DNA from: Gemmatimonadota bacterium
GTDB taxonomy: Bacteria; Gemmatimonadota; Gemmatimonadetes; Longimicrobiales; RSA9
DNA length: 64,000 bases
Assembly: GCA_007126035.1 (NCBI GenBank)
Contig: SLCC01000011.1
Location: 14,286-78,285, forward strand
Direction of reading: 5' to 3'
Shown here piece after piece: positions 8,455 to 43,468 of this stretch; positions within the stretch are counted from its first letter, which is position 1, and each line of letters begins with the position of its first letter. Position numbers and translations under genes: made by a program. Under the pieces are notes generated by a model. That model was not told the DNA's origin. It ran no database searches and was given only the letters and a program-made list of their open reading frames with translations.

Positions 8455-8524
8455 CCTCGGCCGCCCCTGACTCGTCATAGGGATGAACAAGGCGGATCAG
8501 ACACCGATCGAAACGGAGATAAAG

Positions 8525-9154
8525 ATGAGCGCCACGAGAATCCTCACCGCCGCATGCGCGCTGGCCGTACTGGCCGCGCCGCTGGCCGCGCAGAACCCGG
8601 AGCAGCGGATCCAGCACGCCATGGACCGGGTCCAGGCCCAGGGCATGCCCGCGGAACTGCTCCAGGACAAGCTCGCAGAGGGGCTGGCCAAGAACGTGCC
8701 CATGGACCGGATCGCGGCCGTGATCGAGACCCGTGCCCTGCACATGGCGCAGGCGCAGGTCGCTCTCCAACGTGCACAGCAGGGTCCGCCCTCCGCGGCC
8801 GATCTGGCCGTCGGCGCCGACGCCATCGGCGCGGGCGTGAGCGAGGCGGTGCTGGCGGAGATCGCGAGCGAAGCCGGCCCCGAGCGGCGGACTGTGGCGC
8901 TCGCGGCGCTGGCCTACCTGGCCGGTCCCGACGGTGGGCTGCCCGAGGCAGCTCGCGTCGACCACGCTCTTGAGATGGTCATGGAGGCCCTCGACCGCGG
9001 TGGCCCGGGGCTCGGCGATCTCCAGCAGATCGCCCAGCGGGCCCGCGAGCAGCAGGGGATCGGCGGCCCGCCCGCGGGCGTGCCCGCACCCGGTAAGCCG
9101 GGTGGCGTCGGCAGGCCCGGCCGCCCCGGCGGTGGCCCGCCGAACAGCCTCTAA
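8525..9154 (+). CDS. secreted hypothetical protein (alpha-helical, Gly/Pro-rich tail)
   Basis: Start re-set to MSATRILTAACALAVLAAPLAAQ (signal peptide). No recognisable family. Same strand as the ECF genes, 70 nt downstream. Confidence 0.5.
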   Translation: MSATRILTAACALAVLAAPLAAQNPEQRIQHAMDRVQAQGMPAELLQDKLAEGLAKNVPMDRIAAVIETRALHMAQAQVALQRAQQGPPSAADLAVGADAIGAGVSEAVLAEIASEAGPERRTVALAALAYLAGPDGGLPEAARVDHALEMVMEALDRGGPGLGDLQQIAQRAREQQGIGGPPAGVPAPGKPGGVGRPGRPGGGPPNSL

Positions 9155-9188
9155 CAACTCGACCCGGCGCGTCTGATCGAGCCGACAA

Positions 9189-9227
9189 CCGGGGGCGGCC
9201 CCGTCACCAGGACGGGGCCGCCCCCGG
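9189..9227 (+). terminator. perfect 17-bp GC-rich hairpin after the 8525-9154 gene
   Basis: ccgggggcggccccgtc (9189-9205) / loop accag / gacggggccgcccccgg (9211-9227). No U-tract follows. Confidence 0.5.
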
Positions 9228-9270
9228 CGCATCCGCCCGGGTCCAGCTCCGGCACCCGCCCGTCGGCCAG

Positions 9271-9362
9271 CCCGGGAGCAGCCCGGGAGCCGCTCGGGAA
9301 CCCGGTCGGGAGCCGCCCGGGAGCCGCTCGGGAACCCGGTCGGGAGCCAGTTCTGGGAGCCG
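9271..9362. repeat. helically phased (C/T)GGGA motif array including a perfect 34-bp tandem duplication
   Basis: gcccgggagccgctcgggaacccggtcgggagcc occurs at 9281-9314 and again at 9315-9348. CGGGA/TGGGA cores start at 9273, 9284, 9295, 9307, 9318, 9329, 9341 and 9354, giving spacings of 11, 11, 12, 11, 11, 12 and 13. Confidence 0.85.
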
Positions 9363-9459
9363 GCGGGCGGGCGGCCCCTGTGAACCGGTAGCGCGGCGGA
9401 GTTCCCCACGCCCGTTGCGCAAATTCCGCGTCGGGCTCTATGCTCGTTGGGCGCCACCT

Positions 9460-10986
9460 ATGACACGACCCGAACCCCGACGACACATTTTCTTCGACCC
9501 CCTGGTCCGCACGGCCACGACAGCGACGTCGCGATCAGCCGGGCCCCGGGACAGGCTCCGGGCGGCTCGCCTGCTGGCACTGGCCCTTCTCCTGGCCCTG
9601 GCCGTCCCGCCCCCGCTCCTGGCCCACCAGTACCTCCGGGCGTCGGCCCCCGCCGACGGCGCCCAGCTCGATGCGGTCCCGGCCGAAGTGCGGCTCACCT
9701 TCTCCGAGCCCGTCCGGTTGGACTTCACCGATGTGGCGATCCAGGGTCCCGACGGGCTCCTGGTCCTGGGCCCCGGGGCCCAGGACCAGGAAGACCCCCG
9801 GGTCCTGGTGGTCCCGGTGGAGGGGGGTTGGCACGCGGGCGAGTTCGTCGTGCGCTGGACCACCGTGGGCGCCGATGGTCATCGGACCAGCGGGTCGGTC
9901 TCCTTCACCGTGGCCACGGACGCGGCGGGGCTCCCGGAGCCCGAGCCCGACCCCGCCGTTGATCCGGATCCCGCCGCGGCAGCTCCTGATGCCCCGGCGG
10001 CGGACCTGCGCACGCCACATCACGACCCACGGCTCTTTCCGGAGACCCCTGCGTTCGGCCCCGAGTCCCCGGCGTACGTTGCGATCCGCGCCGTGCTCTT
10101 CTCGGCGCTGGTCGCCCTGATCGGCGTCGTGGCGCTCAGGCTCACTGTCTTCCCGGCGGTCCGGCGGCGCTGGCCGGACCGGGGGGGCTGGCTGGTGGGT
10201 GGTATCGACCGGGGCGGGGCCCGGCTGGGCCTGGTGGCCAGCGCGCTCCTCATCCTGGCCGCCCTGGCCCGGCTGTGGGCCCAGTCCGCGTCGCTGTTCG
10301 GCACCGACGGGGCCCTGGCCCGCGATCGCCTGGCCCAGGCCCTGTCCCTCGAGCCCTGGGCCACTGGGTGGTGGCTACAGGTGACGGCGGCGGTGTTGGC
10401 GCTGGTCGGGTTCGCCCTGGTCCCGCGCGTTCCCGTCGCGGGCTGGGCGGTGGCTGCCCTGGCCGCCACTGCGGCGGCGATCACACCGGCCCTCTCCGGC
10501 CACGCTGTCGCCCTGTCCGATCTCAGCTGGTTCGCCGTGCCCGTTGACGCGGTGCACGTGCTGGCGGCAGGCGGCTGGATCGGCGGGCTGCTGGCGCTGG
10601 TGGTGGTGGGACTGCCCACAGCCCTGGGCCTCTCGCCGGAGCGCCGGGGCCCCGCCGCTTCCGCCCTGGTCCAGAGCTTCTCCCCCGCCGCCCTGGCCTT
10701 CACCGCCGCGCTGCTCGTGACCGGCGTGGTCTCGGCCTGGCTGCACCTGGGCGATGTCCAGGCGCTCTGGACCAGCGCCTACGGCCGCACCCTCCTCCTG
10801 AAGGTGGCGATCTTCTCCGCTGTAGCCCTGCTCGGGGCTTACAACTTCCTCCGGCTCCGACCCACCGTCGAGAGCGAGGATGGGTCCCGTAGGCTCCGGC
10901 GCTCCGGCGCCGTGGAGCTGGTGCTGGCGCTGGCGGTCATAGCCGTGACCGCCGTGCTGGTGGCCATCCCGCCGCCGGCTGACTGA
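9460..10986 (+). CDS. copper resistance protein, CopC-CopD fusion
   Basis: After the signal peptide, HQYLRASAPADGAQLDAVPAEVRLTFSEPV is a CopC-type periplasmic domain. It is followed by ~8 TM helices of CopD type. The start is uncertain (ATG 9415 or 9460). Confidence 0.8.
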   Translation: MTRPEPRRHIFFDPLVRTATTATSRSAGPRDRLRAARLLALALLLALAVPPPLLAHQYLRASAPADGAQLDAVPAEVRLTFSEPVRLDFTDVAIQGPDGLLVLGPGAQDQEDPRVLVVPVEGGWHAGEFVVRWTTVGADGHRTSGSVSFTVATDAAGLPEPEPDPAVDPDPAAAAPDAPAADLRTPHHDPRLFPETPAFGPESPAYVAIRAVLFSALVALIGVVALRLTVFPAVRRRWPDRGGWLVGGIDRGGARLGLVASALLILAALARLWAQSASLFGTDGALARDRLAQALSLEPWATGWWLQVTAAVLALVGFALVPRVPVAGWAVAALAATAAAITPALSGHAVALSDLSWFAVPVDAVHVLAAGGWIGGLLALVVVGLPTALGLSPERRGPAASALVQSFSPAALAFTAALLVTGVVSAWLHLGDVQALWTSAYGRTLLLKVAIFSAVALLGAYNFLRLRPTVESEDGSRRLRRSGAVELVLALAVIAVTAVLVAIPPPAD

Positions 10987-11083
10987 CGGTCCCGCCGCCC
11001 GAGACACTCCACCGCTGCCTGCGATCCTCGCCGGTCGGGCTGGGCTCGGCATCCCGGCCGCTCGCTCTGGCGCGAGTGATCGC

Positions 11084-13060
11084 CTACTCCAGGTACGTAT
11101 ATCCGTCCAGCCCCTCGTCCAGGAACCGGCGCAGGCTCACCGCTTCGTCCAGGGTCAGGCGCTTGTTCGCCAGCGCCGCCTCAACCTCTCGTCGGAGCGT
11201 GCGCCGGATGGCGTCCGGGTTGTACTGCACGGAGCTGAGAACCTCCCGGACCGAGTCGCCCTCCACCACCTCCTCGAGCTGCCACTGCCCGTCAGTCCCC
11301 AGCTTGACGTGCACGGCGTGGGTGTCACCGAACAGGTTGTGCAGGTCGCCCAGCGTCTCCTGGTAGGCTCCCGTGAGGAAGGCGCCCAGGTAGTAGGGCT
11401 CGTATGCCACGGAGGGCCCGCCGTTGGGCCGGAGCGGCTGGAGCGCGTGCAGGGGCAGGGTCTTCTCCGGGCCCATCCGTCCCGGGAAGGCGTCCACGCG
11501 GCCGTCGGAGTCGCAGGTGATGTCCGCCAGCGTGGCCCGCCGCGTGGGGGCTTCGTTCAAGCGGTGGATCGGGATGATGGGGAACAGCTGGTCGATGCCC
11601 CATGAGTCGATCAGGGACTGGAACAGGCTGAAGTTGGAGAAGTAGAGGTCCCCCAGCCGGTCCGCCAGGTCGCCGAACTCCTCCGGCAGGTCTTCGGCGA
11701 AGTCCCGGAGCACCTGGTTGCCGATGGCCCAGTACAGCTCCTCGCAGGCGGCGCGGGCGATGATGGACATGTAGCCCAGGTTGAACAGGCTCATGGCCTC
11801 GCCCAGGGCGTGCTCCGCGTCATGGTAGACCTCCGCCGCGTCCACCTCCGGGTCGCCCAGCCGCTCGAAGGCGTCCACCAGGTCCAGCAGCGGCTGGGGC
11901 GTCTCGTCCTCCGGGACCTCCGCCAACGCCCGCTCGATGAGCTTGCCGTCCGGCTTGACCGGGAAGACGCGGCTGCCCAGGACCTCGAAGACCAACACGC
12001 CGGAATGGGCCACCAGCGCCCGGCCGGATTCGGTGATGATCTGGGGGTGCGGCACCTCGGCGTCGTCGCATATGAACTGGACCCGGTGGATGATGTCCGC
12101 GGCGTACTGCTCCAGCGTGTAGTTGATGGACGACTGGGTGGCCGATTGGGTCCCGTCGTAGTCCACCCCGAGCCCGCCGCCCAGGTCCAGGATCCCCATG
12201 GGCGCGCCCAGCTTCACCAGCTCCACGTACAGGTGGGTCAGCTCGTTCACCGCGTACTTGATGGTCCGGATGTCATAGATCTGCGACCCGATGTGGCAGT
12301 GCAGCATCACCAGCCCCTCCAGCAGCCCCTCCTCCCGCAGGTAGTCCACCGATGACAGGATCTGGCTCACCGACAGGCCGAACTTGCCACGGAAGCCGCC
12401 GGACCCCGCCCAGCGACCCACGCCGCTAGTGGCCAGCTTGGCCCGCACGCCGAACCGGGGCGTGACCCGATGCGCCCGCGCGGACCGGACGATCAGCTCG
12501 AGCTCGAACGGCTGCTCGGCCACCGGCAAGACGTTACGGCCCATCTTCGCCGCCAGGATTGTCGTCTCGATGAACTCGCTGTCCTTGAAACCGTTGCAGA
12601 CCAGCGGCATGTCGGGCAGGCCGGCGGTTAGCGCCAACCCCGCCAGCAGCTCGGGCTTCGAGCCCGCCTCCAGCCCAAAACCCAGCTCCCTGCCCAGGTC
12701 TCGGATCTCTTCCGCCAGGTACCGCTCCTGGTTCACCTTCAGCGGGTAGACGCAGGTGTAGCCGCCCTGGTACTCCGCCTCGGCGATGGCCTCGTCGAAC
12801 GCCCGGCGCATGTGGCGCATGCGGTGGGCCAACACGCCCGAGAACCGGACGACGACCGGCGGGTTGATGTGCCTGGCCGAGAGCCCCTCCACCACGTCCA
12901 GCAGGTCGATGGTCTTCTCGTCGCCGTCGGGGTGGACCTGGACGGTGCCACGCTCGGATACGCTGAAATAGGGCGCGCCCCAGTCCTCGAGACCGTAAAG
13001 CTCGGCGGAGTCGGCGGAGGTCCAGACGCGGTCCTGCGACGGCAATGGCGTCTCTAGCAT
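11084..13060 (-). CDS. speA: biosynthetic arginine decarboxylase
   Basis: ~658 aa with full-length resemblance to SpeA (SAELYGLEDWGAPYFSV.., YPLKVNQ, HCHIGSQ, DITCDSDG). Start re-set to MLETPLP (ATG 13060). Confidence 0.9.
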   Translation of the reverse strand: MLETPLPSQDRVWTSADSAELYGLEDWGAPYFSVSERGTVQVHPDGDEKTIDLLDVVEGLSARHINPPVVVRFSGVLAHRMRHMRRAFDEAIAEAEYQGGYTCVYPLKVNQERYLAEEIRDLGRELGFGLEAGSKPELLAGLALTAGLPDMPLVCNGFKDSEFIETTILAAKMGRNVLPVAEQPFELELIVRSARAHRVTPRFGVRAKLATSGVGRWAGSGGFRGKFGLSVSQILSSVDYLREEGLLEGLVMLHCHIGSQIYDIRTIKYAVNELTHLYVELVKLGAPMGILDLGGGLGVDYDGTQSATQSSINYTLEQYAADIIHRVQFICDDAEVPHPQIITESGRALVAHSGVLVFEVLGSRVFPVKPDGKLIERALAEVPEDETPQPLLDLVDAFERLGDPEVDAAEVYHDAEHALGEAMSLFNLGYMSIIARAACEELYWAIGNQVLRDFAEDLPEEFGDLADRLGDLYFSNFSLFQSLIDSWGIDQLFPIIPIHRLNEAPTRRATLADITCDSDGRVDAFPGRMGPEKTLPLHALQPLRPNGGPSVAYEPYYLGAFLTGAYQETLGDLHNLFGDTHAVHVKLGTDGQWQLEEVVEGDSVREVLSSVQYNPDAIRRTLRREVEAALANKRLTLDEAVSLRRFLDEGLDGYTYLE

Positions 13061-13423
13061 TGGTAGGTCTTTGCTGCGCTTCACGCTGATGATCTTGTAA
13101 TCCAGGACGCACAAGAGTCACCCACTCAGGGCCTTCCCACAAGACCCGACTCTCCAGCAACCTCGGGGCGAGCCGTTGCAGGAACCTTTCCAGTTGTGTT
13201 TCCCGGTAGCCTGTGGACGGACAGAGATCTGACCGGTCCGGGCTGTATCTCGTAATGGAGCGGCCCGAGCCCCCGGGCCGCCCCGGCCTTGCTGCACGGA
13301 TCTTGCCTCTGCTCCACCAGCGTTCTGTGCAGGGAGTGCCGTTGACGCGGGGCTCGCTGTTGGCCGGAGGGGGCCGTTCGACCGACGGGCCCCTATTTCT
13401 GTTGCCTGGAGCCGAGGCGGATT

Positions 13424-14188
13424 ATGGCGGGACGAGGCTCGGACCAGCCGACGGCGGTGCTGGGCAGGGACCGGGTGGAGGCGGAGGTGCGCCGGCTGGG
13501 CCCCTGGTTCCATGACCTGGACCTGGGCGGCGTCCGTACCGCCCCTGACCACCCGTTGGGCGGATTCCTCGGTGACCTGTGGTCGACGGTAGAGGCTGCT
13601 TTCCCCGCCGACATGACGGGCAAGCGGGTGCTGGACATCGGCTGCAACGCCGGCTTCTACTCGTTCCAGCTCCGCCGCCGTGGCGCCCGGGTCCTGGGCA
13701 TCGACCACGATCCACGCTACCTGGCGCAGGCCCGTTTCGCCGCCGGCGTCCTGGGCCTGGACGTGGAGTTCCGTGAGCTGGAGGTCTACGACGTGGTCGA
13801 GTTGGGCGAGACGTTCGACTACGTCCTGTTCATGGGCGTGCTGTACCACCTGCGCTACCCCCTCCTGGCCCTTGACCGGGTAGCCCGAGTGGTCGAGGAG
13901 ACCCTGGTCGTGCAGAGTATGGTCCGCGGGGCGGCGCCACCGGCGGCGGTCTCGACTGACGCTCCACTCGAAGAGGAGCGGATGTTCCATGAGCCGGGTT
14001 TCCCTGGCATGTACTTCGTCGAGCACAGCTACGCGGGGGACCCGAGCAACTGGTGGATCCCCAACGAGGCGGGCCTCCAGGCCATGCTCCGCTCCGCCGG
14101 TCTCGTCATCCGAGAGCACCCGGGCCCCGGCATATACTTCTGCGGTCCGAACGTCGACTTCACACGTTGGGGTAACGCATGGCGGTGA
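13424..14188 (+). CDS. class I SAM-dependent methyltransferase (CmoB/DUF1698-like)
   Basis: VLDIGCNAGFYSF..GA.VLGIDHD is the SAM motif I / post-I. From unverified memory, this type is annotated as a TIGR04290-family methyltransferase. First gene of the coupled operon. Confidence 0.75.
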   Translation: MAGRGSDQPTAVLGRDRVEAEVRRLGPWFHDLDLGGVRTAPDHPLGGFLGDLWSTVEAAFPADMTGKRVLDIGCNAGFYSFQLRRRGARVLGIDHDPRYLAQARFAAGVLGLDVEFRELEVYDVVELGETFDYVLFMGVLYHLRYPLLALDRVARVVEETLVVQSMVRGAAPPAAVSTDAPLEEERMFHEPGFPGMYFVEHSYAGDPSNWWIPNEAGLQAMLRSAGLVIREHPGPGIYFCGPNVDFTRWGNAWR

Positions 14189-15273
14189 AACCGGTACTCG
14201 TGACAGGTGGCGCCGGGTTCATTGGCAGCAATCTGGTGGATACGCTCCTTTCCGACGGTGAGCGCGTCGTGGTAGTGGACAATCTGTCCCGGCCCGGCTC
14301 GGTCCGGAACGCCGAGTGGCTCAGTCGTCGCCATGGCGAGCGGGTGGCCATCGAACGGGTCGACGTCGGGGACGAGCCGACCATGCGACGGCTGGTGGGA
14401 GGTTCCAGGGCGGTCTACCACATGGCGGCGCAGGTAGCGGTCACCACGTCGATCGTCGATCCGGTCCTGGACTTCGAGACCAACCTCCAGGGCACGTTCA
14501 ACATCCTGGAGGCCGCCCGCCGGTCCGAGCCGCCGCCGCCAGTCCTGTTCACCTCCACCAACAAGGTCTACGGTGGCCTCGACGACATCCCCGTGGAGTT
14601 GGACGGTGAACGTTATGTCCTGACGGGTACACCGGCAGGGGTCGGCGAAGACCGGCCGCTGGACTTTCACTCGCCCTACGGCTGTTCGAAGGGCGCCGCG
14701 GACCAGTATGTCCGGGACTACGGCCGGGTCTTCGGTGTGCCCGCCGTGGTCCTGCGCATGAGCTGCGTCTATGGCCGGCGCCAGTGGGGCACGGAAGACC
14801 AGGGCTGGGTAGCCCATTTCGGACGGGCCCTGCTGAAGAACGCTCCCATCACCATCTACGGCGACGGGTTCCAGGTCCGGGACATCCTCTGGGTCGACGA
14901 CCTGGTGGCTGCCATGCGATGCGCAGTGGCCGCCGCCGTCGGTGCGACGCCCCGGATCTACAACATCGGCGGCGGGCCGGACAACGCGGTTTCCGTCAGG
15001 GAGGTTGTGGACCGCCTGGCCGCGCTCATCGGTGTGAACCCCAAGCTGGTGCTCAACGACTGGCGCCCCGGGGATCAGCGGGTGTACGTGACCGACACCC
15101 GCAGGATCAACGAGGAGCTGGGCTGGAGACCGAGCGTCGCGGTGGAGGAAGGACTGGTGCGCCTGCTGGAGTGGCTCCGGGAGGCGGAGGGGACCAAGGC
15201 AATGAGGCCGTCGCCCCGGATCGGAACGGGCCGGGGTCGGGGCTCCCGGGCGGCTGCGGGCGCCAGCTCGTGA
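14179..15273 (+). CDS. NAD-dependent sugar epimerase/dehydratase, CDP-paratose 2-epimerase-like SDR
   Basis: VLVTGGAGFIGSNL, YGCSKGAADQY (YxxxK) and the GTEDQGWVAHF segment that I associate with CDP-tyvelose/paratose epimerases. Overlaps the upstream gene by 10 nt. Confidence 0.8.
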   Translation: MAVKPVLVTGGAGFIGSNLVDTLLSDGERVVVVDNLSRPGSVRNAEWLSRRHGERVAIERVDVGDEPTMRRLVGGSRAVYHMAAQVAVTTSIVDPVLDFETNLQGTFNILEAARRSEPPPPVLFTSTNKVYGGLDDIPVELDGERYVLTGTPAGVGEDRPLDFHSPYGCSKGAADQYVRDYGRVFGVPAVVLRMSCVYGRRQWGTEDQGWVAHFGRALLKNAPITIYGDGFQVRDILWVDDLVAAMRCAVAAAVGATPRIYNIGGGPDNAVSVREVVDRLAALIGVNPKLVLNDWRPGDQRVYVTDTRRINEELGWRPSVAVEEGLVRLLEWLREAEGTKAMRPSPRIGTGRGRGSRAAAGASS

Positions 15274-15314
15274 GTCGGGGCGTGGGCACTCCCGCCTCGC
15301 CAGACCGCGCCACG

Positions 15315-16277
15315 ATGAGCGCTGCCGTCCTGACGGCGCCAGGCCGGGTCAGGTTGGACCGGGTGCGGCGGCCGGACCCCGGGCCGGGTCAGGTCAGGAT
15401 CCGGCTCGAGGGGAGCGGTGTCTGTGGCTCGGACCTGGCCCAGTGGAGGGGCGCCCCCTGGTTCAGCTATCCGTTACCGCCGGGTCAGCCCGGCCACGAG
15501 GGGTGGGGCGAGGTCGACGCGCTGGGCAGTGGCGTGGAGGCGCCGGCCCCGGGCACCAGGGTCGCCACCCTCGCCATCGGCGCCTACGCCAACTACGCAC
15601 TGGACCATGCCAGCGCCGTGGTCCCGCTGCCGGACTCGCTGGCGGACCGGCCGTTCCCAGCGGAGCCGCTGGGCTGCGCCATGAACGTGTTCAGGCGCAG
15701 CCATGTCGCTCCGGATGACGCGGTGGTGGTGGTCGGTATCGGGTTCCTGGGCGCTCTCCTCACCCGTCTGGCCGTGGTTGCCGGCGCCCGGGTCATGGCC
15801 GTCTCCCGGCGGCGCTTCGCCCGGGACGTGGGCAAGCAGGCCGGCGCGGAGGTGGTGGCGGAGCTGGACCACGGTCCCGCCGCCCTGGAGGAGTGGGTCC
15901 GTGACTGGAACAGCGGCCGGCTCGCGGATAGCGTCATCGAGGTCACCGGCACACAGTCGGGGCTGGACGCGGCGTCCCGGCTGCCCCGGGTCCGCGGCCG
16001 GCTGGTCATTGCCGGCTACCACCAGGGCGGCCCGCGGACGGTGGACCTCCAGGGCTGGAACTGGCGCGGGCTGGACGTTATCAACGCCCACGAGCGGGAC
16101 CAGGCCGAGTACGTGCGCGGGATGCGCGAGGCCATCACGGCCGTGGAGACGGGTCGCCTGGATCCGTGGCCCCTCATCACCCACACCTTCCCACTGGACC
16201 TCCTGGACCAGGCACTGGACATGGCACGGAGCCGACCGGACGGGTTCCTCAAGGCGGTGGTGATCCACGATGGCTAG
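15315..16277 (+). CDS. zinc-dependent alcohol/polyol dehydrogenase (MDR family)
   Basis: Start re-set to MSAAVLTAPGRV. Contains EGSGVCGSDL (catalytic Zn Cys), GHEGWG and a Rossmann VVVVGIGFLG. The long 5' extension in the track overlaps the epimerase out of frame. Confidence 0.8.
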   Translation: MSAAVLTAPGRVRLDRVRRPDPGPGQVRIRLEGSGVCGSDLAQWRGAPWFSYPLPPGQPGHEGWGEVDALGSGVEAPAPGTRVATLAIGAYANYALDHASAVVPLPDSLADRPFPAEPLGCAMNVFRRSHVAPDDAVVVVGIGFLGALLTRLAVVAGARVMAVSRRRFARDVGKQAGAEVVAELDHGPAALEEWVRDWNSGRLADSVIEVTGTQSGLDAASRLPRVRGRLVIAGYHQGGPRTVDLQGWNWRGLDVINAHERDQAEYVRGMREAITAVETGRLDPWPLITHTFPLDLLDQALDMARSRPDGFLKAVVIHDG

Positions 16278-17358
16278 TGGAGCACTCCCCCGGTCAGGTG
16301 AGCGCTGGGAGCGCGGCGCCGCCGGCGAGACCGCTCGCGCCCGCGCGGCCAGGGGCGGCGAGGTCGGTGTGCCACGAGTCGGCTTCGCAGGCGTGGGCTG
16401 GATCGGCCGCCATCGCATGGAGGCCATCGTGGAGGCGGGCCCGGTCCAGGTCGCGGCCATCGTGGACCCTGACCCGGCCGCCACGTCCGCCGCCTCGGCG
16501 CTGGCCCCGTCCGCTGCCATCGTGGACTCGTTCGAGCGTCTCCTGGACCTGGAACTGGACGGCGTGGTGATCGCCACACCCAGCGCTGCCCACGCCGAGC
16601 AGGCGACGGCGGCCCTGGAGAGAGGCGCCGCCGTCTTCTGCCAGAAGCCCCTGGGCCGGACCGCCGCTGAGACGGAGGCGGTGGTGTCGGCGGCCAGGAC
16701 GGCGGACCGGCTGCTGGGCGTTGACCTGTGCTATCGGCGGACCGCTGCCATGGAGCGGGTGCGGGAGGCTGTGGTGGCGGGCGAGCTGGGCCGCGTGCAC
16801 GCCGCGGACCTCACCTTCCACAACGCCTACGGGCCGGACAGGTCCTGGTTCTACGACCCCGGCCTCGCCGGTGGCGGGTGTCTGGTGGACCTGGGCACCC
16901 ACCTGGTCGACCTGGCCCTGTGGGTCCTGGGCTTCCCCTCCGTGGACAGGATAAGCTCCCGGCTCTACCACCGGGGCCGGCTGGTTCGGCCCTCTGACCA
17001 GGTGGCCGAGGACCATGCACTGGTCGAGCTGGGGCTGGACGGCGGTGCGACCGTGCGCATCGCCTGCTCGTGGAACCTCCACGCCGGGCGGGACGCCGTC
17101 ATCGAGGCAGCCTTCTACGGGGACGAGGGTGGCGCGGCCATGAGGAACGTGGCGGGCTCCTTCTACGACTTCACCGCTGACCTCTACCGCGGCACCAGCG
17201 CCCGGCGGCTGGCGGACCCGCCGGACGCCTGGGGCGGGCGCACCATCGTCGGGTGGGCGAAGAGCCTGGCCCGGGGCCACGGGTTCGATCCGGACATAGG
17301 GCAGGCCATCGACGTGGCCCGTGTCCTGGACCGGGTATACGAGCGATGCGCATACTGA
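16270..17358 (+). CDS. Gfo/Idh/MocA-family oxidoreductase
   Basis: VGFAGVGWIGRHRMEAI is the N-terminal Rossmann; the body is typical of the family. The ATG at 16270 overlaps the upstream stop. An alternative GTG at 16369 has GAGG 5 nt upstream. Confidence 0.75.
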   Translation: MASGALPRSGERWERGAAGETARARAARGGEVGVPRVGFAGVGWIGRHRMEAIVEAGPVQVAAIVDPDPAATSAASALAPSAAIVDSFERLLDLELDGVVIATPSAAHAEQATAALERGAAVFCQKPLGRTAAETEAVVSAARTADRLLGVDLCYRRTAAMERVREAVVAGELGRVHAADLTFHNAYGPDRSWFYDPGLAGGGCLVDLGTHLVDLALWVLGFPSVDRISSRLYHRGRLVRPSDQVAEDHALVELGLDGGATVRIACSWNLHAGRDAVIEAAFYGDEGGAAMRNVAGSFYDFTADLYRGTSARRLADPPDAWGGRTIVGWAKSLARGHGFDPDIGQAIDVARVLDRVYERCAY

Positions 17359-18455
17359 TCACGACAGACGTCCTGGGCGGCGTCTGGGACCACACTGTCA
17401 CCCTGGTCCGGGAGCTGGCCGACGCAGGCGACGAGTGCCTGGTCGCCGTGATCGGCGCGCCGTCGGCGGCGCACCTCCGGCAGCTGCCCCACAACGTCGA
17501 GGTCGAGTACGGGGACTTCCTTCTGGAGTGGATGCCGGATGCGGAAAGGGACATCGCGTCCGCCACCGCCTGGTTGAGGGGGTTGGCGGGGAGATGGGGC
17601 GCCGAGCTCGTCCACTTCAACCAGTTCGCCTACTCTGCGGTCGATCACGACGTGCCGGTGGTGGTGGTGGCCCACAGCGACGTCTGCTCCTGGCACGCGG
17701 AGGTGACGGGGCAGGAGGCGCCGGCGGAATGGGACAGCTACCGGGCGAGGGTCCGGGCCGGGCTCCGGGCCGCCGACCGCATCGTGGCGCCCAGCCGATA
17801 TCAGTCCGACCTCCTGGCCCGACACTTCGGCCAGCCAGCCCACCACGTCATCCACAACGGTATCGGCTCCGGCAGCCGGCGGGACCTGCCGCCGGCCTCG
17901 GCCCGACCGTGGATTTGCAGTGCGGGCCGCGCCTGGGACCCGGCCAAGGGCATGGCTACGCTGGAGCGGGCGGCCCGCATGCTGGGCGACGCCGGGCCGC
18001 CCATCCGCGTGGCCGGGCCGCTCCAGGGCCCCGACAACACCCGCTTCGACCCGGGCCGGCTCGTGGCCCTGGGCCCCCGCTCCCGGGCCGATATGGACCG
18101 TCTCTTCGCCAGCACCGCGATCTACGTGGGCACCTCCCTCTACGAGCCCTTCGGCCTGGCGCCACTGGAAGCTGCCGACCATGGCTGTGCACTGGTGCTC
18201 TCGGACCTGGGGTCCTTCCGGGAGCTGTGGGACGACGTGGCGGCCTTCTTCCCTCCCGGCGACGCGGACGCCCTGGCCGGGTGCCTCCGTGACCTGGTCC
18301 GCGACCCCGCCCGCATGGACGAGATGGGGCGATCGGCGCGGCGCAGGGCTGGGGGCCGTTACACCGCCACCGCCATGGCGACAGCATACCGCCGGCTGTA
18401 CGCCGACCTGGTGGAAACGCGCCACGCCACCCGTGTGGAGGGGCAGGCCGTATGA
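17346..18455 (+). CDS. GT4-type (GT-B, group 1) glycosyltransferase
   Basis: Start re-set to MRILITTDVLGGVWDH. The C-terminal YEPFGLAPLEAADHGCALV is the E-x7-E-like GT4 motif. Overlaps upstream by 13 nt. Confidence 0.8.
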   Translation: MRILITTDVLGGVWDHTVTLVRELADAGDECLVAVIGAPSAAHLRQLPHNVEVEYGDFLLEWMPDAERDIASATAWLRGLAGRWGAELVHFNQFAYSAVDHDVPVVVVAHSDVCSWHAEVTGQEAPAEWDSYRARVRAGLRAADRIVAPSRYQSDLLARHFGQPAHHVIHNGIGSGSRRDLPPASARPWICSAGRAWDPAKGMATLERAARMLGDAGPPIRVAGPLQGPDNTRFDPGRLVALGPRSRADMDRLFASTAIYVGTSLYEPFGLAPLEAADHGCALVLSDLGSFRELWDDVAAFFPPGDADALAGCLRDLVRDPARMDEMGRSARRRAGGRYTATAMATAYRRLYADLVETRHATRVEGQAV

Positions 18456-19558
18456 AGCTGGTCTTCTTCACCCACAGCGTGGCCTCCGACTGGAACCACG
18501 GCAATGCCCACTTCCTCCGGGGTCTCCTGGACGCCCTGGCCCGGAAGGGCCATCCGGTCACCAGCGCCGAGCCGGTGGCGGGCTGGTCCCTGACCAACCT
18601 GGTCGAGGATGCCGGCGCCGCGCCTGTGGTCCGGTTCGCCCGGGAATTCCCCCGGATCGACGTCGTCAACTACCACGTCGACAAGGACCTCCCCGACCGC
18701 ATCCGGGAGATCACCGCCGGCGCCGACGCCGTCGTCGTCCACGAATGGACCGACCCAGCCGTGGTGGGGCTGCTGGCCCTGGAGCGGATCCGGCGCGACG
18801 ACTTCGTCCTGCTGTTCCACGACACGCACCACCGTGCCGTCAGCGCGCCGGGCGCCATGGCCGCTTTCAACCTGGGCCCGTACGACGGCGTCCTGGCCTT
18901 CGGCGACTCGCTCCGTGAGGTCTACGAGCGCAGGTACGGAGTTCAACGCGCCTGGACCTTCCACGAGGCGGCGGACACCGACCGCTTCCGCCCCCTGGAC
19001 CTCGAGCAGCGGGACGACGTGATCTGGATCGGGAACTGGGGCGACGAGGAGCGGAGCGACGAGTTGCGGACATACTGGCTGGACAGCGCCATGGCCCACC
19101 CCCACCTCCGGTTCGTGGCCTACGGGGCCCGTTACCCCGAGGACGCCCTGGAAGAGCTGGAGGCGGCGGGCGTCGACTTCCGCGGCTGGGCGCCGTCCCT
19201 GGATGTGCCCGAGCTCTTCGCCCGTAGCAGAATCACCCTGCACATCCCGAGACGCCTCTACGTGGAGGACCTGCCGGGCATCCCCACCATCCGTGTCTTC
19301 GAGGCGCTGGCCTGCGGGATCCCTCTGGTCTCCACGCCCTGGAAGGACACCGAGAGCCTGTTCCGTGACGACGACTTCGCCCTGGTCGACTCGCCGGCCG
19401 AGATGCGCCGCGTCATCGGTCGCCTCTACGCCGACCCGGACGTCCGGGCCGGGCAGGCGGAGCGGGGGCTGGAGACGATCCGGGCACGCCACACCTGCCG
19501 CCACCGGGCCGACCAGCTCCTGGAGATCCTGGCCGGGCTCGGGCACGACGGGTCCTGA
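18452..19558 (+). CDS. CgeB-like glycosyltransferase (Glyco_trans_1_2 type), paralogue 1
   Basis: MKLVFFTHSVASDWNHGNAHFLRGLL..; C-terminal RVFEALACGIPLVS. ATGA overlap with the upstream gene. Confidence 0.7.
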   Translation: MKLVFFTHSVASDWNHGNAHFLRGLLDALARKGHPVTSAEPVAGWSLTNLVEDAGAAPVVRFAREFPRIDVVNYHVDKDLPDRIREITAGADAVVVHEWTDPAVVGLLALERIRRDDFVLLFHDTHHRAVSAPGAMAAFNLGPYDGVLAFGDSLREVYERRYGVQRAWTFHEAADTDRFRPLDLEQRDDVIWIGNWGDEERSDELRTYWLDSAMAHPHLRFVAYGARYPEDALEELEAAGVDFRGWAPSLDVPELFARSRITLHIPRRLYVEDLPGIPTIRVFEALACGIPLVSTPWKDTESLFRDDDFALVDSPAEMRRVIGRLYADPDVRAGQAERGLETIRARHTCRHRADQLLEILAGLGHDGS

Positions 19559-19571
19559 GACTGGAGGAGCA

Positions 19572-20663
19572 ATGGCTCGACCGCATATCACATTCTTCGG
19601 ATCGTCCCTGGTGTCGTCCTACTGGAACGGTGCCGCAACCTACTACCGGGGGCTGCTACGACAGCTGGCGGGCCGGGGCTACGACATAACCTTCTGCGAG
19701 CCCGATGCCTACGATCGCCAGGCGCACCGGGACCTGGCCGAGGACCCGACCTGGGCCCGCATCTGCGTATACGACTCCGCCGCGCAGAGAGACCGCCTGC
19801 TGGACCGGGCCTTCCGGGAAAGCGACTGGGTGGTCAAGTGCAGCGGCGTCGGCGTCTGGGACCAGGAGTTGGAGCTCGCCCTGGCCGAGGGAGCAGGCGG
19901 CACCGCCCGCACCGCCTTCTGGGACGTGGACGCTCCCGCCACCCTGGCCGCCCTGGACCGGGACCCGGACATGCCCCTCAACAGGGCGATCCCCAACCTC
20001 GACCACGTCTTCACCTACGGCGGCGGGCCGCCTGTGGTCCGGCGGTACCTTGCCGCCGGCGCCAGGCAGTGCACGCCCATCTACAACGGGCTGGACCCAG
20101 AAGAGCACCGTCCCCCTGAGCGGCCAGGACCACCACGGTGGGACGCGCTGTTCATGGGCAACCGGCTCCCGGACCGGGAGGAGCGGGTCGACCGCTTCTT
20201 CTTCCGCGTGGCCCGCAGCCTGCCAGACCGGCGCTTCGCCCTGGGCGGCGAAGGCTGGGACAGCACGCGGATGCCGCACAACGTGGACCGGCTGGGGCAC
20301 GTGCCCACCAGCCGCCACAACGAGATCAATGGCGCCAGCCGGCTGGTCGTCAACATCCACCGTGACTCCATGGTGGCGAACGGGTACTCCCCAGCCACGC
20401 GGATGTTCGAGGCCGCCGGGGCCGGCGCCTGCCAGGTTACCGACAGCTGGCAGGGGATCGAGGAGTTCTTCGAGCCGGGGAGCGAGATCCTGGTCGCGGC
20501 GGATACAGAGGAGATGGTCAGGCACCTGGTCGAGACCGACGACCAACGCGCCGCGGCCATCGGTGGCGCAGCCCGGGACCGGGCCCTGAACGACCACACC
20601 TACCGCCGCCGCGCCGCCCGGCTGGACCAGGTGCTACGCAGCTACAAGGGAGTCGCCGCATGA
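19572..20663 (+). CDS. CgeB-like glycosyltransferase, paralogue 2
   Basis: Start re-set to MARPHITFFGSSLVSSYWNGAATYYRGLL, with GGAGGAG 3 nt upstream. C-terminal RMFEAAGAGACQVTD. Confidence 0.7.
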   Translation: MARPHITFFGSSLVSSYWNGAATYYRGLLRQLAGRGYDITFCEPDAYDRQAHRDLAEDPTWARICVYDSAAQRDRLLDRAFRESDWVVKCSGVGVWDQELELALAEGAGGTARTAFWDVDAPATLAALDRDPDMPLNRAIPNLDHVFTYGGGPPVVRRYLAAGARQCTPIYNGLDPEEHRPPERPGPPRWDALFMGNRLPDREERVDRFFFRVARSLPDRRFALGGEGWDSTRMPHNVDRLGHVPTSRHNEINGASRLVVNIHRDSMVANGYSPATRMFEAAGAGACQVTDSWQGIEEFFEPGSEILVAADTEEMVRHLVETDDQRAAAIGGAARDRALNDHTYRRRAARLDQVLRSYKGVAA

Positions 20664-21781
20664 AGCTCGTCGTCTTCGGCCTGTCCCTCTCCTCGAGCTG
20701 GGGGAACGGCCACGCCACCACCTATCGGGCCCTGCTCCGGGGGTTCGCGCGCCGCGGGCACGACGTCGTCTTCTACGAGTGGGACGCGCCCTGGTACCGG
20801 GGACACCGCCGGGACCTGCCCGACCCGGACTTCTGCCAGCTGCACCTCTACCCCGACTGGGAACAGGTGGCGCCCGACGCCCTGGCCCGGGCGCGAGAGG
20901 CGGACGCCGTGGTGGTGGGCTCCTACGTCGAGCGCGGGCCCCGCGTCATCGACGACCTCCTCGCCGCCGGCATCGCGCCCGCCTTCTACGACATCGACAC
21001 CCCCGTCACCGTCGCCCAGCTCCGCCGCGGTGAGACGGTGTCACTCCGGCCCGACCAGGTGCCCGATCTGCGGCTGTACCTGTCCTTCACCGGCGGCCCC
21101 TTCCTCCGCCAGGTGCTGGAAGGAGAGCTGGCGGCACGGTCCGCGTACCCCCTCTACTGCTGCGTCGAGGAAGAGAGCTACCAGCCCGTGGAGCGCGACC
21201 CCGACCTGGCCGCGGACCTGGCGTACATGGGGACCTACGCGCCGGACCGCCAGCCCGGCCTCGAGCGGCTCCTCAGCGAGCCGGCCAGGCTCCTGGAGCG
21301 GCGCAGCTTCATGGTGGCGGGACCCCAGTATCCAGACCACATCACCTGGCCCACCAACGTCAGGCGCCTGGACCACCTGCCGCCGGCGAGGCATCCTGCC
21401 TTCTACTCCAGCGCCGGCTGGCAGCTGAACCTCACCCGGGCCGACATGCGCCGGGCGGGGTGGTCGCCGTCGGTCAGACTGTTCGAGGCCGCCGCTTGTG
21501 CCGCACCCATGCTCTCGGACCACTGGGACGGGCTGGACGCGTTCTTCACCCCGGGCAGGGAGGTTCTGCTGCCCGAGAGCGGGGAGGAGGTGGTGGGGAT
21601 CCTCGAGTCCTTCCACGACGACGACCGCCGGGCCATCGGCGTCGCCGCCAGGCAGCGGGTCCTGGCGGAGCACACCGCCAGCCACAGGGCGGCGGAGCTG
21701 GAGGGGCTGCTCCTGGAGCGGCCCGCTCCCAGTACAGCGCATGCAGGGGAAACCGTGGACAGGAGTGGCCCCCGATCATGA
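20660..21781 (+). CDS. CgeB-like glycosyltransferase, paralogue 3
   Basis: MKLVVFGLSLSSSWGNGHATTYRALL..; C-terminal RLFEAAACAAPMLSD. ATGA overlaps at both ends. Confidence 0.7.
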   Translation: MKLVVFGLSLSSSWGNGHATTYRALLRGFARRGHDVVFYEWDAPWYRGHRRDLPDPDFCQLHLYPDWEQVAPDALARAREADAVVVGSYVERGPRVIDDLLAAGIAPAFYDIDTPVTVAQLRRGETVSLRPDQVPDLRLYLSFTGGPFLRQVLEGELAARSAYPLYCCVEEESYQPVERDPDLAADLAYMGTYAPDRQPGLERLLSEPARLLERRSFMVAGPQYPDHITWPTNVRRLDHLPPARHPAFYSSAGWQLNLTRADMRRAGWSPSVRLFEAAACAAPMLSDHWDGLDAFFTPGREVLLPESGEEVVGILESFHDDDRRAIGVAARQRVLAEHTASHRAAELEGLLLERPAPSTAHAGETVDRSGPRS

Positions 21782-22605
21782 CCGGGACCGCGAACCAGGT
21801 GCCCACGATCCAGCTGCCCGGCGGCGTCGCCATGCCGCAACTCGGCCTGGGCACCTGGGAGCTCAGGGGCGACGAGTGCGAACGGGCCGTCCGGTTCGCC
21901 ATCGAAGTCGGATACAGGCACATCGACACCGCCGAGGGCTACGGCAACGAAGACGCCGTGGGGCGCGGCATCCGCGGCGTCGACCGGGAGAGCCTCTTCA
22001 TCACGTCCAAGGTGTGGAGGAGCCGTCTCGGCCGCTCGGACCTGGTGGCCGTCTGCGAGAACTCTCTCCGTGAGCTGGGGACCGAGTACCTGGACCTGCT
22101 CCTGGTCCACTGGCCTAACAGCGACATCCCCATCGGCGAGACCGTCGAAGGCTTCATGGACCTCCGCCAGGCGGGGAAGATACGGGCGTGGGGGGTCAGC
22201 AACTTCACCGAATCCCACCACCGGGAAACGGTGGCCCACCACACGCCGGCCACCAACCAGGTCGAGCTACACCCCTTCTTCAACCAGAGGCAGCTCAGCG
22301 CCGTGTGCCGTGACCTGGGCGTGCCCGTCACCGCCTACTCGCCCCTGGCCAGAGGACGTGTGGCAGCGGACCCGACCATCCGTGGGATCGCCGACTCGCA
22401 CGGCGTCACTCCCGCCCAGGTGGCCGTGCGATGGGCTATCCAGCATGGTTACGCCGTCATCCCCAAGTCCGCTGACCCCGGAAGGATGCGGTCGAACCTC
22501 AACGTCTTCGGATTCCAGTTGTCGGGCCAGGAGATTACCGCCATCGACGCCCTGCCTCAGGGGGACAGATTGGTTGACGGGAGCTGGTCGGAGTTCCACC
22601 GCTGA
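21778..22605 (+). CDS. aldo/keto reductase
   Basis: Start re-set to MTGTANQVPTIQLPGGVAMPQLGLGTWEL. Contains GYRHIDTAEGYGNE and LDLLLVHWP (AKR catalytic Asp/Tyr/Lys/His context). Confidence 0.85.
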   Translation: MTGTANQVPTIQLPGGVAMPQLGLGTWELRGDECERAVRFAIEVGYRHIDTAEGYGNEDAVGRGIRGVDRESLFITSKVWRSRLGRSDLVAVCENSLRELGTEYLDLLLVHWPNSDIPIGETVEGFMDLRQAGKIRAWGVSNFTESHHRETVAHHTPATNQVELHPFFNQRQLSAVCRDLGVPVTAYSPLARGRVAADPTIRGIADSHGVTPAQVAVRWAIQHGYAVIPKSADPGRMRSNLNVFGFQLSGQEITAIDALPQGDRLVDGSWSEFHR

Positions 22606-22724: not shown

Positions 22725-23759
22725 TCAGGCGGTCTTGACCTTTGGCCTGGCGGCCAGGGCACGACGGAGCGCCCCGTACGCCGGCTTCTCCTGCCCAGCC
22801 ACCAGAAACCCATCCCGGTACCGGATCAGCCCCATGTGATACTCCGCCTCCTCACGGGGGCCTCCATGGGCTTCCTCGATGGCCACCCGGCTCGGGGGCA
22901 GGTCGAACAGCGTGTACCAGTACATCCGCTCAGCCGGCGCCGTCAGCGCTTCATGCAACCGGGCCATCTGCACATCCTCACGACACCGGATGTCTTCACC
23001 CTTGTGGTAGGTGGCCAGCCCGGTCTCCGTTACCCAGACCGGTAGCCCGCTGGTCCGCTCCAGCTCGCCTATCCTGTGCTCCCAGCCGTACCAGTGGCTC
23101 GGATGGTCCCAGGACGTGGCGTAGGGCTCCCACATCTGGGGGAACGCATGGATGCCCAGCACGTCCATGTGCTCGAGCACGCCGTGCCGGGCCATTGTCC
23201 GCACGAACTCGTAGTCCAGGAGGGTGATCCCACCCAGAACAGTCACCTTGCCGCGCTGGCGAGCCGAGTTGCCCGCATCGCTCACCATCTCCGCGAAGAT
23301 CTCGTGATCCGGGTCGTAACGGGGGTCCCACTTGTACGGGTTGTTCGGCTCGTTCCACAGCTCGATGGCGTCGAAAACGGTACCGTAGGAGCGGATCGTC
23401 TCATCGATGAAGTCCGCATAGTCACGGGGCCGAACGGGGGGAAGCGCCGAATTGCCGCCAGCCGGGTCCGCCGTGATCGATGGCGGCGTGTGCCAGACCG
23501 ACAGCAGCACCTCCAGGTCGCTGCTACCCAGGACCTGCATCAGGTGGTCGTACCAGGCCCGGCCACGGGGGCGATGGTAGTCCGCCCATGACAGGCCGGT
23601 CCGGAGGTGCCGCACACCCAGCTCGTCCAGCGCCTCCACCGTCGCATCAAGGAGCCGCCAGTCCTCGTAGTGGAACCACTGACAGATGCCGAACCGGTCC
23701 GCAAGGTTGTCGTTCTCTATCGATGCCGGGGGCTTCGGGTGGCTCGGGTGTTGGGCCAT
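22725..23759 (-). CDS. cytoplasmic clan GH-A glycoside hydrolase ((beta/alpha)8; GH5/GH39-like)
   Basis: Start re-set to MAQHPSHP. ELWNEPN is the acid/base motif and VWVTETG the nucleophile motif. No signal peptide. Confidence 0.65.
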   Translation of the reverse strand: MAQHPSHPKPPASIENDNLADRFGICQWFHYEDWRLLDATVEALDELGVRHLRTGLSWADYHRPRGRAWYDHLMQVLGSSDLEVLLSVWHTPPSITADPAGGNSALPPVRPRDYADFIDETIRSYGTVFDAIELWNEPNNPYKWDPRYDPDHEIFAEMVSDAGNSARQRGKVTVLGGITLLDYEFVRTMARHGVLEHMDVLGIHAFPQMWEPYATSWDHPSHWYGWEHRIGELERTSGLPVWVTETGLATYHKGEDIRCREDVQMARLHEALTAPAERMYWYTLFDLPPSRVAIEEAHGGPREEAEYHMGLIRYRDGFLVAGQEKPAYGALRRALAARPKVKTA

Positions 23760-43374: not shown

Positions 43375-43468
43375 GGGGGTGCATGGGGCCTGGTGGTCCT
43401 CGGCGGCTTCAAACCGTCTGCGGCGACCCACGGGGTTGCTGGGTGGGTTCGATTCCCACACACTCCCG
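43375..43468 (+). tRNA. selC: tRNA-Sec (anticodon TCA)
   Basis: Hand-folded. Acceptor GGGGGTGC / ACACTCCC (7 bp plus a terminal C-A mismatch). 6-bp D-stem GGGGCC/GGTCCT with the 4-nt loop TGGT. Anticodon stem GGCGG/CCGTC with loop CTTCAAA (TCA at 43409-43411). Long extra arm GCGACCC-ACG-GGGTTGC. T-arm GTGGG-TTCGATT-CCCAC. Discriminator G; CCA not encoded. Confidence 0.75.

Follow-up and report, generated by a model that had tools for sequence, protein, structure and literature searches.

Gene content of the locus

The stretch of DNA analysed here (64 kb, G+C content ~70%; in the following, the window) comes from a metagenome-assembled genome (MAG) of the phylum Gemmatimonadota and contains nine consecutive genes on the + strand. 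They are arranged as an operon whose predicted products would build and modify a glycan or glycoside. A glycoside hydrolase gene, convergent with the operon, lies 119 nt past its end. The ten open reading frames (ORFs) and their predicted products are as follows.

13424..14188, + strand: TIGR04290-family S-adenosylmethionine (SAM)-dependent methyltransferase, class I; probable sugar O-methyltransferase
14179..15273, + strand: extended short-chain dehydrogenase/reductase (SDR), CDP-tyvelose 2-epimerase-like nucleoside diphosphate (NDP)-hexose epimerase (PF01370/PF16363)
15315..16277, + strand: Zn-dependent alcohol/polyol dehydrogenase of the medium-chain dehydrogenase/reductase (MDR) type, below Zn-ADH (ADH_N and ADH_zinc_N)
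16270..17358, + strand: Gfo/Idh/MocA oxidoreductase, glycoside/cyclitol dehydrogenase-like, below Gfo (PF01408 and PF22725)
17346..18455, + strand: GT4 glycosyltransferase, first of the GT4-CgeB1-CgeB2-CgeB3 block (PF13439, PF13692 and PF00534)
18452..19558, + strand: CgeB-type GT-B glycosyltransferase, orthogroup 1, CgeB1 (PF13524, E=9.5e-36)
19572..20663, + strand: CgeB-type GT-B glycosyltransferase, orthogroup 2, CgeB2 (PF13524, E=3.4e-40)
20660..21781, + strand: CgeB-type GT-B glycosyltransferase, orthogroup 3, CgeB3 (PF13524, E=1.1e-39)
21778..22605, + strand: aldo/keto reductase (AKR), DkgA/B-like, lineage-specific addition (PF00248, E=7.7e-57)
22725..23759, - strand: predicted cytoplasmic clan GH-A (beta/alpha)8 glycoside hydrolase, PslG-like (sequence and AlphaFold/Foldseek)

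The window DNA is also present on the Gemmatimonadota MAG GCA_007120925.1 and on two other public contigs, and independent gene calls on these three contigs agree with the nine + strand ORFs listed in an initial annotation made from the sequence alone. The junctions are likewise as described there: overlaps of 10 nt (14179/14188), 8 nt (16270/16277) and 13 nt (17346/17358), ATGA overlaps at 18452, 20660 and 21778, and gaps of 41 nt and 13 nt. The last ATGA couples the AKR gene, which forms the 3' end of the operon, to the preceding gene. The coding status of the nine ORFs is supported because the G+C content at third codon positions reaches 85-93% in the called frames. Searches against Pfam and NCBIfam bore out the motif-level domain calls for all nine proteins, and these identities support the proposed biosynthetic operon.

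Conservation of the gene cassette

In a scan using one genome per species, loci encoding the methyltransferase were found in at least 594 species genomes, and 80 loci were fetched. The window proteins and four extra cassette proteins were mapped onto the fetched loci, and genes were counted over the 47 loci of at least 19 kb; these counts are lower bounds, as clusters often run past the 10-kb flanks. L-numbers (L011, L085, etc.) designate related loci compared with the window. The loci come from at least eight phyla, including Gemmatimonadota, Acidobacteriota, Myxococcota (among them Sorangium cellulosum So ce56), Alphaproteobacteria, Verrucomicrobiota, Bacteroidota, Chloroflexota and Actinomycetota. 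The following was counted.

44/47 loci: GH-A hydrolase gene adjoining the methyltransferase gene
30-32/47 loci: GT4-CgeB1-CgeB2-CgeB3 block, order kept
27/47 loci: tyvelose-epimerase-like SDR
24/47 loci: second, GalE-like epimerase
20/47 loci: fourth CgeB-type transferase and nucleotidyltransferase
13-14/47 loci: Zn-ADH and Gfo
12/47 loci: TIGR04295 radical-SAM protein
1/47 loci: AKR

Since unrelated genomes repeat the same genes in the same order, the organisation of the operon is far beyond chance. The genes are co-conserved across phyla, which the initial annotation had set as a check, with the methyltransferase-hydrolase pair (44/47) and the glycosyltransferase block (~30/47) in fixed order. 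The nine genes proposed there as a unit do form a real operon, but they are not the conserved unit: the AKR is a lineage-specific add-on, whereas the hydrolase belongs to the core. The AKR arrangement is shared only with the relative locus L090, whose AKR is 57% identical to that of the window and which also has the convergent downstream gene. Flanking genes differ in every genome examined.

A tblastn search of the 64 kb, which included the cassette nucleotidyltransferase as query, detected no radical-SAM gene, nucleotidyltransferase, second epimerase or fourth CgeB-type gene. Judged by its gene content, the window copy is a reduced Zn-ADH/Gfo variant of the cassette.

The cassette occurs on 133 plasmids, including pSymB of Sinorhizobium meliloti 1021 and pR132503 of Rhizobium leguminosarum WSM1325 (RLEG_RS30760-30805); the RefSeq and exact-sequence cluster names of the cassette proteins of these two species are generic only. 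The pSymB copy (L086, record positions 228496-257176, with the cassette at about 242.5-253.3 kb) contains Gfo, Zn-ADH, two epimerases, GT4 and three CgeB-type genes, and additionally a UXS-like SDR and the methyltransferase. In its 28.7-kb stretch, the GH-A hydrolase was not detected.

In many genomes a four-gene sub-block, CgeB4-nucleotidyltransferase-methyltransferase-GH, stands alone within 20 kb (L011, L012, L015, L025, L033, L051, L055, L062 and L064, around 8000-11600). This sub-block might suffice by itself as a minimal module; alternatively, these genomes might carry the other cassette genes at another site.

Some cassettes include accessory genes, namely a histidine phosphatase (seven loci), a UDP-glucose dehydrogenase and a metalloenzyme-family phosphomutase. 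An inositol-1-phosphate synthase (Ino1) is present in one cassette only, the distant copy L053. The positions of the accessory genes, including a fused ABC exporter present in two myxobacteria only, are L014:7619-8227, L083:9258-9992, L053:8134-9411, L017:13729-15168, L065:11688-12938 and L026:16561-18597. Such genes may point to a phosphorylated primer and to sugars particular to single lineages. Two recurrent families of gap ORFs (L062/L016/L070/L074 and L021/L044) had no Pfam match; many of the intra-cluster gap ORFs in these high-GC loci are probably spurious.

Methyltransferase, glycosyltransferases and hydrolase

The initial annotation had suggested that the first gene be checked against TIGR04290. 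The match is positive, with 317.9 bits against a curated cutoff of 300 over the full model (2-226/226). The DIGCNxG SAM motif is invariant in the methyltransferase family, for which a metagenomic protein search returned more than 8000 homologues. By profile, the best solved relative is EvdMO1 (E=2e-15), an oligosaccharide O-methyltransferase of everninomicin biosynthesis, ahead of CmoB. Family members are mislabelled as 'tRNA (mo5U34)-methyltransferase' in annotations.

Orthologues of the GT4 protein (33-54% identity) are encoded directly upstream of CgeB1 in ~30 of the 47 loci. The three CgeB-type genes constitute separate orthogroups, their orthologues across phyla being mostly 45-57% identical, in comparison with 26-37% for the paralogues within the window. 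With positional orthologues from the various phyla, CgeB1 shares 45-68% identity (42-43% in a few matches that are split or partial), but only 26% with its in-window paralogues. The corresponding values are 49-70% for CgeB2 orthologues, with two at 44-45%, and 46-71% for CgeB3 orthologues. A fourth CgeB paralogue (40-50%), absent from the window, accompanies the nucleotidyltransferase in other genomes. The AlphaFold model of CgeB2 (mean predicted local distance difference test, pLDDT, 86.5) has a GT-B fold, and its best matches in the PDB are soluble GT4 enzymes: BshA, PimB', MshA, sucrose-phosphate synthase and 7qsg (ManT), the alpha-(1->4)-mannosyltransferase of the mycobacterial 3-O-methylmannose polysaccharide (MMP). 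The latter is the fold neighbour at rank 17 (E=2.9e-12, 14% identity), a generic GT-B/GT4 likeness.

The ORF at 22725-23759 had been proposed as a dedicated cytoplasmic hydrolase, and its sequence and modelled structure agree with this proposal. It has no Pfam match. By sequence it resembles PslG (E=1.9e-5), and its AlphaFold model (pLDDT 88.7) matches PslG in Foldseek with E=1.7e-17 and a TM-score of 0.71. The catalytic motifs WNEPN (E137) and TETG (E245) are invariant in the hydrolase family, and no signal peptide was found in the hydrolase sequence. The protein is thus predicted to be a cytoplasmic clan GH-A glycosidase.

In other genomes, some rhizobia among them, the hydrolase domain is sometimes fused to a tyvelose-epimerase-like SDR, e.g. 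in R. leguminosarum RLEG_RS30775 (L087:8416-10458; 680 aa). Stand-alone hydrolases are often named 'CDP-paratose 2-epimerase' by the Joint Genome Institute (JGI), and an annotation transfer error originating from these fusions is probably the explanation for the misnaming. A second GH-like ORF in L085 (10594-11598) aligns to the window hydrolase in swapped order, with residues 232-334 preceding residues 41-218. The wrong ORF or frame may have been chosen in this GC-rich locus, or the permutation may be real.

Sugar-modifying enzymes and an exchangeable slot

The best solved relatives of the SDR are CDP-tyvelose 2-epimerases (PDB 9rl0, E=2e-81; 1orr, E=1e-74). The Zn-ADH has sorbitol, threonine and scyllo-inosose dehydrogenases as nearest relatives and is always paired with a Gfo gene in the related loci. 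For the Gfo protein, NCBIfam matches below cutoff were obtained to inositol 2-dehydrogenase, levoglucosan dehydrogenase and glycoside 3-dehydrogenases. Its best PDB matches include DgpA, 6a3f (levoglucosan dehydrogenase) and glucuronide-3-dehydrogenase, and it also resembles IolG. The AKR scores 229 bits against the DkgB model, below the cutoff of 327.

DgpA and 6a3f, relatives of Gfo, are catabolic enzymes. Together with the GH and the AKR, they would fit a locus for the breakdown of an imported glycoside, in which hydrolase, glycoside 3-dehydrogenase and reductases cooperate. The four glycosyltransferases, the NDP-sugar epimerase and the methyltransferase, however, belong to biosynthesis; no transporter, kinase or sugar-responsive regulator is encoded in or beside the operon, and the fuller cassettes add a nucleotidyltransferase. 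We consider a catabolic role highly improbable.

Among 44 loci with a visible transferase block, the TIGR04295 B12-binding radical-SAM gene is present in 18 and Zn-ADH and/or Gfo in 17, and no locus has both (Fisher's exact test, P=5e-6). The TIGR04295 identity is clear for the L085 homologue (L085:2463-3755), which reaches 686 bits against a cutoff of 400. The radical-SAM gene is located directly upstream of GT4 in all 18 loci that have it. The Zn-ADH/Gfo pair occupies the same slot between SDR and GT4 in most collinear loci, including the window (15315-17358). Judged by gene position, one tailoring step seems to have undergone non-orthologous displacement. There is precedent for such a displacement: the radical-SAM enzyme BtrN and the Zn-ADH NeoA alternate in 2-deoxystreptamine pathways.

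These enzymes also bear on a second alternative, according to which the cassette produces not a polymer but a small-molecule natural product, i.e. a pseudo-oligosaccharide, a cyclitol glycoside or a compatible-solute glycoside. Consistent with this are the weak, below-cutoff matches of Zn-ADH and Gfo to inositol, scyllo-inosose and glycoside 3-dehydrogenases, the resemblance of the methyltransferase to EvdMO1, and the aminoglycoside precedent for the swap. Ino1 in one cassette and the histidine phosphatase in seven are reminiscent of glycoside pathways with phospho-intermediates. Against it, no aminotransferase, cyclase or resistance gene accompanies the cassette, and four conserved transferases with a dedicated endo-type hydrolase suggest more than a disaccharide solute. 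An identity of 50-70% across phyla, in at least 594 species, would also be unusual for a secondary metabolite. Overall, a small-molecule product appears improbable, clearly less so than catabolism.

Export components

A Kyte-Doolittle scan found no transmembrane (TM) segment or signal peptide in the eleven proteins checked, in agreement with the initial annotation for the nine operon proteins. The highest 19-mer value, 2.36, belongs to the Rossmann GxGxxG strand of the Zn-ADH. Pfam searches of the window ORFs scanned across the 64 kb detected no domains of Wzx/Wzy, an ABC/OPX polysaccharide exporter, a polyprenyl-phosphate transferase or a nucleotidyltransferase. The operon had been described as lacking an exporter, a priming transferase and a nucleotidylyltransferase, and this holds for the scanned ORFs of the whole window. 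A classical O-antigen, exopolysaccharide or capsule locus was rejected, as exporter and priming genes were not found in the operon, its flanks or the scanned ORFs. Homologous cassettes are not embedded in classical export loci either: their flanks differ from genome to genome, and an exporter, of the fused MsbA/NdvA-like ABC type, was found in only two of the 47 loci, both myxobacterial. The product is probably retained in the cytoplasm, given that evidence of export is absent.

Alternatively, a lipid or protein could serve as acceptor for cytoplasmic assembly of the glycan, which unlinked machinery would then flip or export. The molecule would end up outside the cytoplasm as a glycoprotein, as a glycan of the cell surface or as a periplasmic product resembling glucans. 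PslG, the solved protein closest to the hydrolase, belongs to a secreted polysaccharide, Psl, the lipid-acting PimA/PimB' and PglA are among the fold neighbours of CgeB2, and the two myxobacterial cassettes have the fused ABC exporter. Furthermore, glycosylation of a crust protein, CgeA, has been linked to CgeB in Bacillus subtilis (PMC13577073). Priming transferase, flippase, polymerase and OPX genes are, however, missing from the ORFs scanned across the 64 kb, and export genes were not seen in five other fully annotated contexts. The hydrolase, unlike PslG, has neither signal peptide nor anchor, and no candidate acceptor protein is co-conserved. We regard export as unlikely, yet as the strongest of the alternatives.

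Upstream regions and promoter motifs

For 20 alphaproteobacterial loci (760 kb), the EcfG-type consensus GGAAC-N16-17-CGTT was searched and 14 occurrences were found. Four of these precede the leading gene of a cassette block by 38-59 nt, where 0.12 would be expected (Poisson P=7e-6). The four sites, consensus matches only, are:

L031:13107-13131, EcfG-type motif
L036:11974-11950, - strand, EcfG-type motif
L079:13089-13114, EcfG-type motif
L055:7995-8020, EcfG-type motif

This suggests general-stress control of the cassette in some alphaproteobacterial lineages. A general-stress promoter, if real, would also fit an osmoprotectant or desiccation protectant and hence a small-molecule product.

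The corresponding region of the window is:

13115..13423, + strand: upstream intergenic region, presumed promoter/leader, 309 nt, between a divergent arginine decarboxylase gene and the first operon gene

The EcfG-type motif is absent from this region; GGAAC occurs at 13181, with no CGTT at EcfG spacing. No sigma-70-like site was found in it, and neither promoters nor clear terminators above shuffle expectation were detected at the operon ends. A weak terminator-like hairpin with a T-rich tail is located at 13376-13390, inside the leader and 34 nt before the first start codon; the hairpin count of the leader does not exceed shuffle expectation. A riboswitch or other leader RNA upstream of the operon was rejected, as no Rfam match was obtained at E≤1.

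Proposed function

The operon and the hydrolase may form a self-contained module that, in the cytoplasm, builds a defined oligo- or polysaccharide, or a glycoside, from nucleotide sugars, O-methylates it and processes it by hydrolysis. This reading is based on the gene identities, the GT-B and GH-A folds, the lack of TM and export components, co-conservation and the differing flanks. Further support comes from the GH-SDR fusions, the mutual exclusion of radical-SAM and Zn-ADH genes, the accessory biosynthetic genes, the EcfG-type motifs and the MMP precedent. We give it an even chance of being correct.

In such a pathway, the tyvelose-2-epimerase-like SDR would interconvert an NDP-hexose from general metabolism, e.g. 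between gluco and manno forms. GT4 and the three CgeB-type GT-B transferases, which diverged anciently, would each be responsible for one particular residue or linkage on a soluble acceptor. The Zn-ADH and Gfo pair may oxidise a sugar hydroxyl and re-reduce it via a keto intermediate, resulting in net epimerisation or another redox edit, a step which the B12-radical-SAM enzyme would carry out in other lineages. The TIGR04290 enzyme is expected to O-methylate the glycan, and the PslG-like glycosidase might cut the product for length control, priming or turnover. In the lineage of the window, the AKR would reduce a carbonyl, either of a keto-sugar or at the reducing end. The product would probably stay inside the cell, and the cassette may be stress-induced in some Alphaproteobacteria.

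Several points weigh against cytoplasmic assembly and turnover. Product, acceptor, donor and localisation are all predictions from genes. The absence of a nearby exporter is no proof of retention, since unlinked transporters could act; the two myxobacterial copies do carry the MsbA/NdvA-like ABC exporter, and the substrate of PslG itself is a secreted polysaccharide. CgeB, from which the CgeB-type proteins take their name, presumably glycosylates a protein (CgeA), and a protein or lipid acceptor is accordingly conceivable. The substrate of the redox pair could be the NDP-sugar instead of the glycan, and the equivalence of this pair to the radical-SAM enzyme is inferred from gene position only. 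The window copy, having no nucleotidyltransferase, fourth transferase or second epimerase, may make a different or truncated product. A short methylated oligosaccharide as product would make cytoplasmic assembly overlap with the small-molecule alternative.

A more far-reaching proposal is that soil bacteria from many phyla commonly contain an intracellular O-methylated oligo- or polysaccharide not described before, as a functional counterpart of the mycobacterial polymethylated polysaccharides. The GH-A hydrolase would recycle or size this product, one tailoring step would be performed by either the B12-radical-SAM enzyme or Zn-ADH/Gfo, and general stress would induce the cassette at least in some Alphaproteobacteria. 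As a joint claim this is tentative and, taken whole, rather unlikely to be right in every part.

Intracellular methylated polysaccharides have so far been regarded as peculiar to mycobacteria and close relatives, and a cassette with MMP-like logic in at least 594 species genomes would point to an unrecognised, widespread class of bacterial glycans. Several cassette proteins carry only generic names, or wrong ones like 'tRNA (mo5U34)-methyltransferase', 'CDP-paratose 2-epimerase' and 'spore maturation protein CgeB'. The displacement of the radical-SAM gene gives a handle on the reaction of the TIGR04295 family. In S. meliloti 1021 and R. leguminosarum, two carriers of the cassette that are amenable to genetic work, the question can be put to a direct test.

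Other features of the window

Two proteins with an AMPK1_CBM/CBM48 glycogen-binding module and without a catalytic domain are encoded at 6118-6786 and 6806-7912, followed by the gene of an extracytoplasmic function (ECF)-type sigma factor (7909-8454), ~5 kb upstream of the operon. At 3815-5902 (- strand), a protein-L-isoaspartate O-methyltransferase (PCMT) is fused to an erythromycin-esterase-family domain. A selenocysteine tRNA gene is located at 43375-43467 (+ strand; Rfam RF01852, 64.3 bits), and selenoprotein synthesis is therefore implied in the host organism. The other ORFs scanned in the 64 kb have housekeeping or unrelated functions, e.g. Mla lipid transport, aconitase and peptidases. 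An anti-phage defence role found no support in PADLOC: the sole match was that of the methyltransferase to mad2, based on the generic SAM fold, while the nine other proteins of the operon and hydrolase set had no match to any defence model.

Comparison with known systems

An aminoglycoside- or cyclitol-type cluster was rejected, since the window operon encodes no sugar aminotransferase or cyclitol-forming enzyme domain. The likeness to 2-deoxystreptamine pathways consists in the use of a radical-SAM enzyme and a NAD-dependent MDR dehydrogenase as alternatives in otherwise collinear clusters. Unlike BtrN, the radical-SAM protein of the cassette has a B12-binding domain, and it is replaced by two enzymes, Zn-ADH and Gfo, and not by a single one such as NeoA.

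With CgeB of B. subtilis, which functions in maturation of the spore crust and acts in the mother-cell cytoplasm, the window proteins share the PF13524 C-terminal GT-B domain, a domain-level match only. In contrast to the B. subtilis Cge system, the cassette conserves three distinct CgeB orthogroups alongside sugar-modifying enzymes, and its host here, a Gemmatimonadota MAG, belongs to a phylum that is not known to form spores. None of the annotated neighbouring genes was recognisable as CgeA-like, although no search aimed at CgeA was made.

PslG of Pseudomonas aeruginosa, the GH39-like endoglycosidase of the Psl operon, is the best match of the window hydrolase in both sequence and fold, and the clan GH-A catalytic glutamates are common to both. 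The proteins are 22-23% identical and differ in length (344 aa in the window, 414 aa for PslG), and the window hydrolase is without signal or anchor. PslG has an extra C-terminal beta-sandwich domain, which the window hydrolase would lack. A Psl-type system was rejected, as no other psl-like genes (Wzx/Wzy, PslA-type priming enzyme) are nearby.

The initial annotation had drawn an analogy to mycobacterial methylated polysaccharide loci. The MMP cluster has four genes, MeT1, pMeT3, ManT and MmpH, whose GT-B mannosyltransferase, methyltransferases and cytoplasmic endohydrolase make and recycle an intracellular methylated polysaccharide with no exporter (PMC9883506). The analogy stands for the functional logic: GT-B transferase(s), SAM methyltransferase(s), a dedicated cytoplasmic endo-hydrolase and no exporter are found in both. 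It fails for homology, as the endomannosidase MmpH is a GH-L-like inverting (alpha/alpha)6 barrel (PMC9883506), whereas the PslG-like hydrolase here is a (beta/alpha)8 barrel and no (alpha/alpha)6 protein is present. Membership in the MMP system was therefore rejected on hydrolase fold and gene sets: MMP has one transferase and two methyltransferases, the cassette four transferases, one methyltransferase and three or four redox/epimerase enzymes. MMP is restricted to Actinobacteria, whereas the cassette spans many phyla.

The closest correspondence is to a cassette for which NCBIfam/TIGRFAMs hold two 'hypothetical equivalog' models, TIGR04290 (meth_Rta_06860) and TIGR04295 (B12_rSAM_oligo), the latter presumably described in TIGRFAMs as the B12/radical-SAM protein of a 'rhizo-twelve system'. 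The literature searched, in which most subscription journals fell outside coverage, contained no characterisation of the cassette or its product, in line with the earlier statement that no characterised pathway with this gene set was known. The cassette is apparently a catalogued but uncharacterised family. The window agrees with it in the above-cutoff methyltransferase and in the relative order of the GT4-CgeB1-CgeB2-CgeB3 block, SDR and GH-A hydrolase, which was matched in rhizobial, myxobacterial, acidobacterial and other copies. Compared with the fuller cassettes, the window has Zn-ADH and Gfo in place of the TIGR04295 gene, is without nucleotidyltransferase, CgeB4 and second epimerase, and has gained the AKR.

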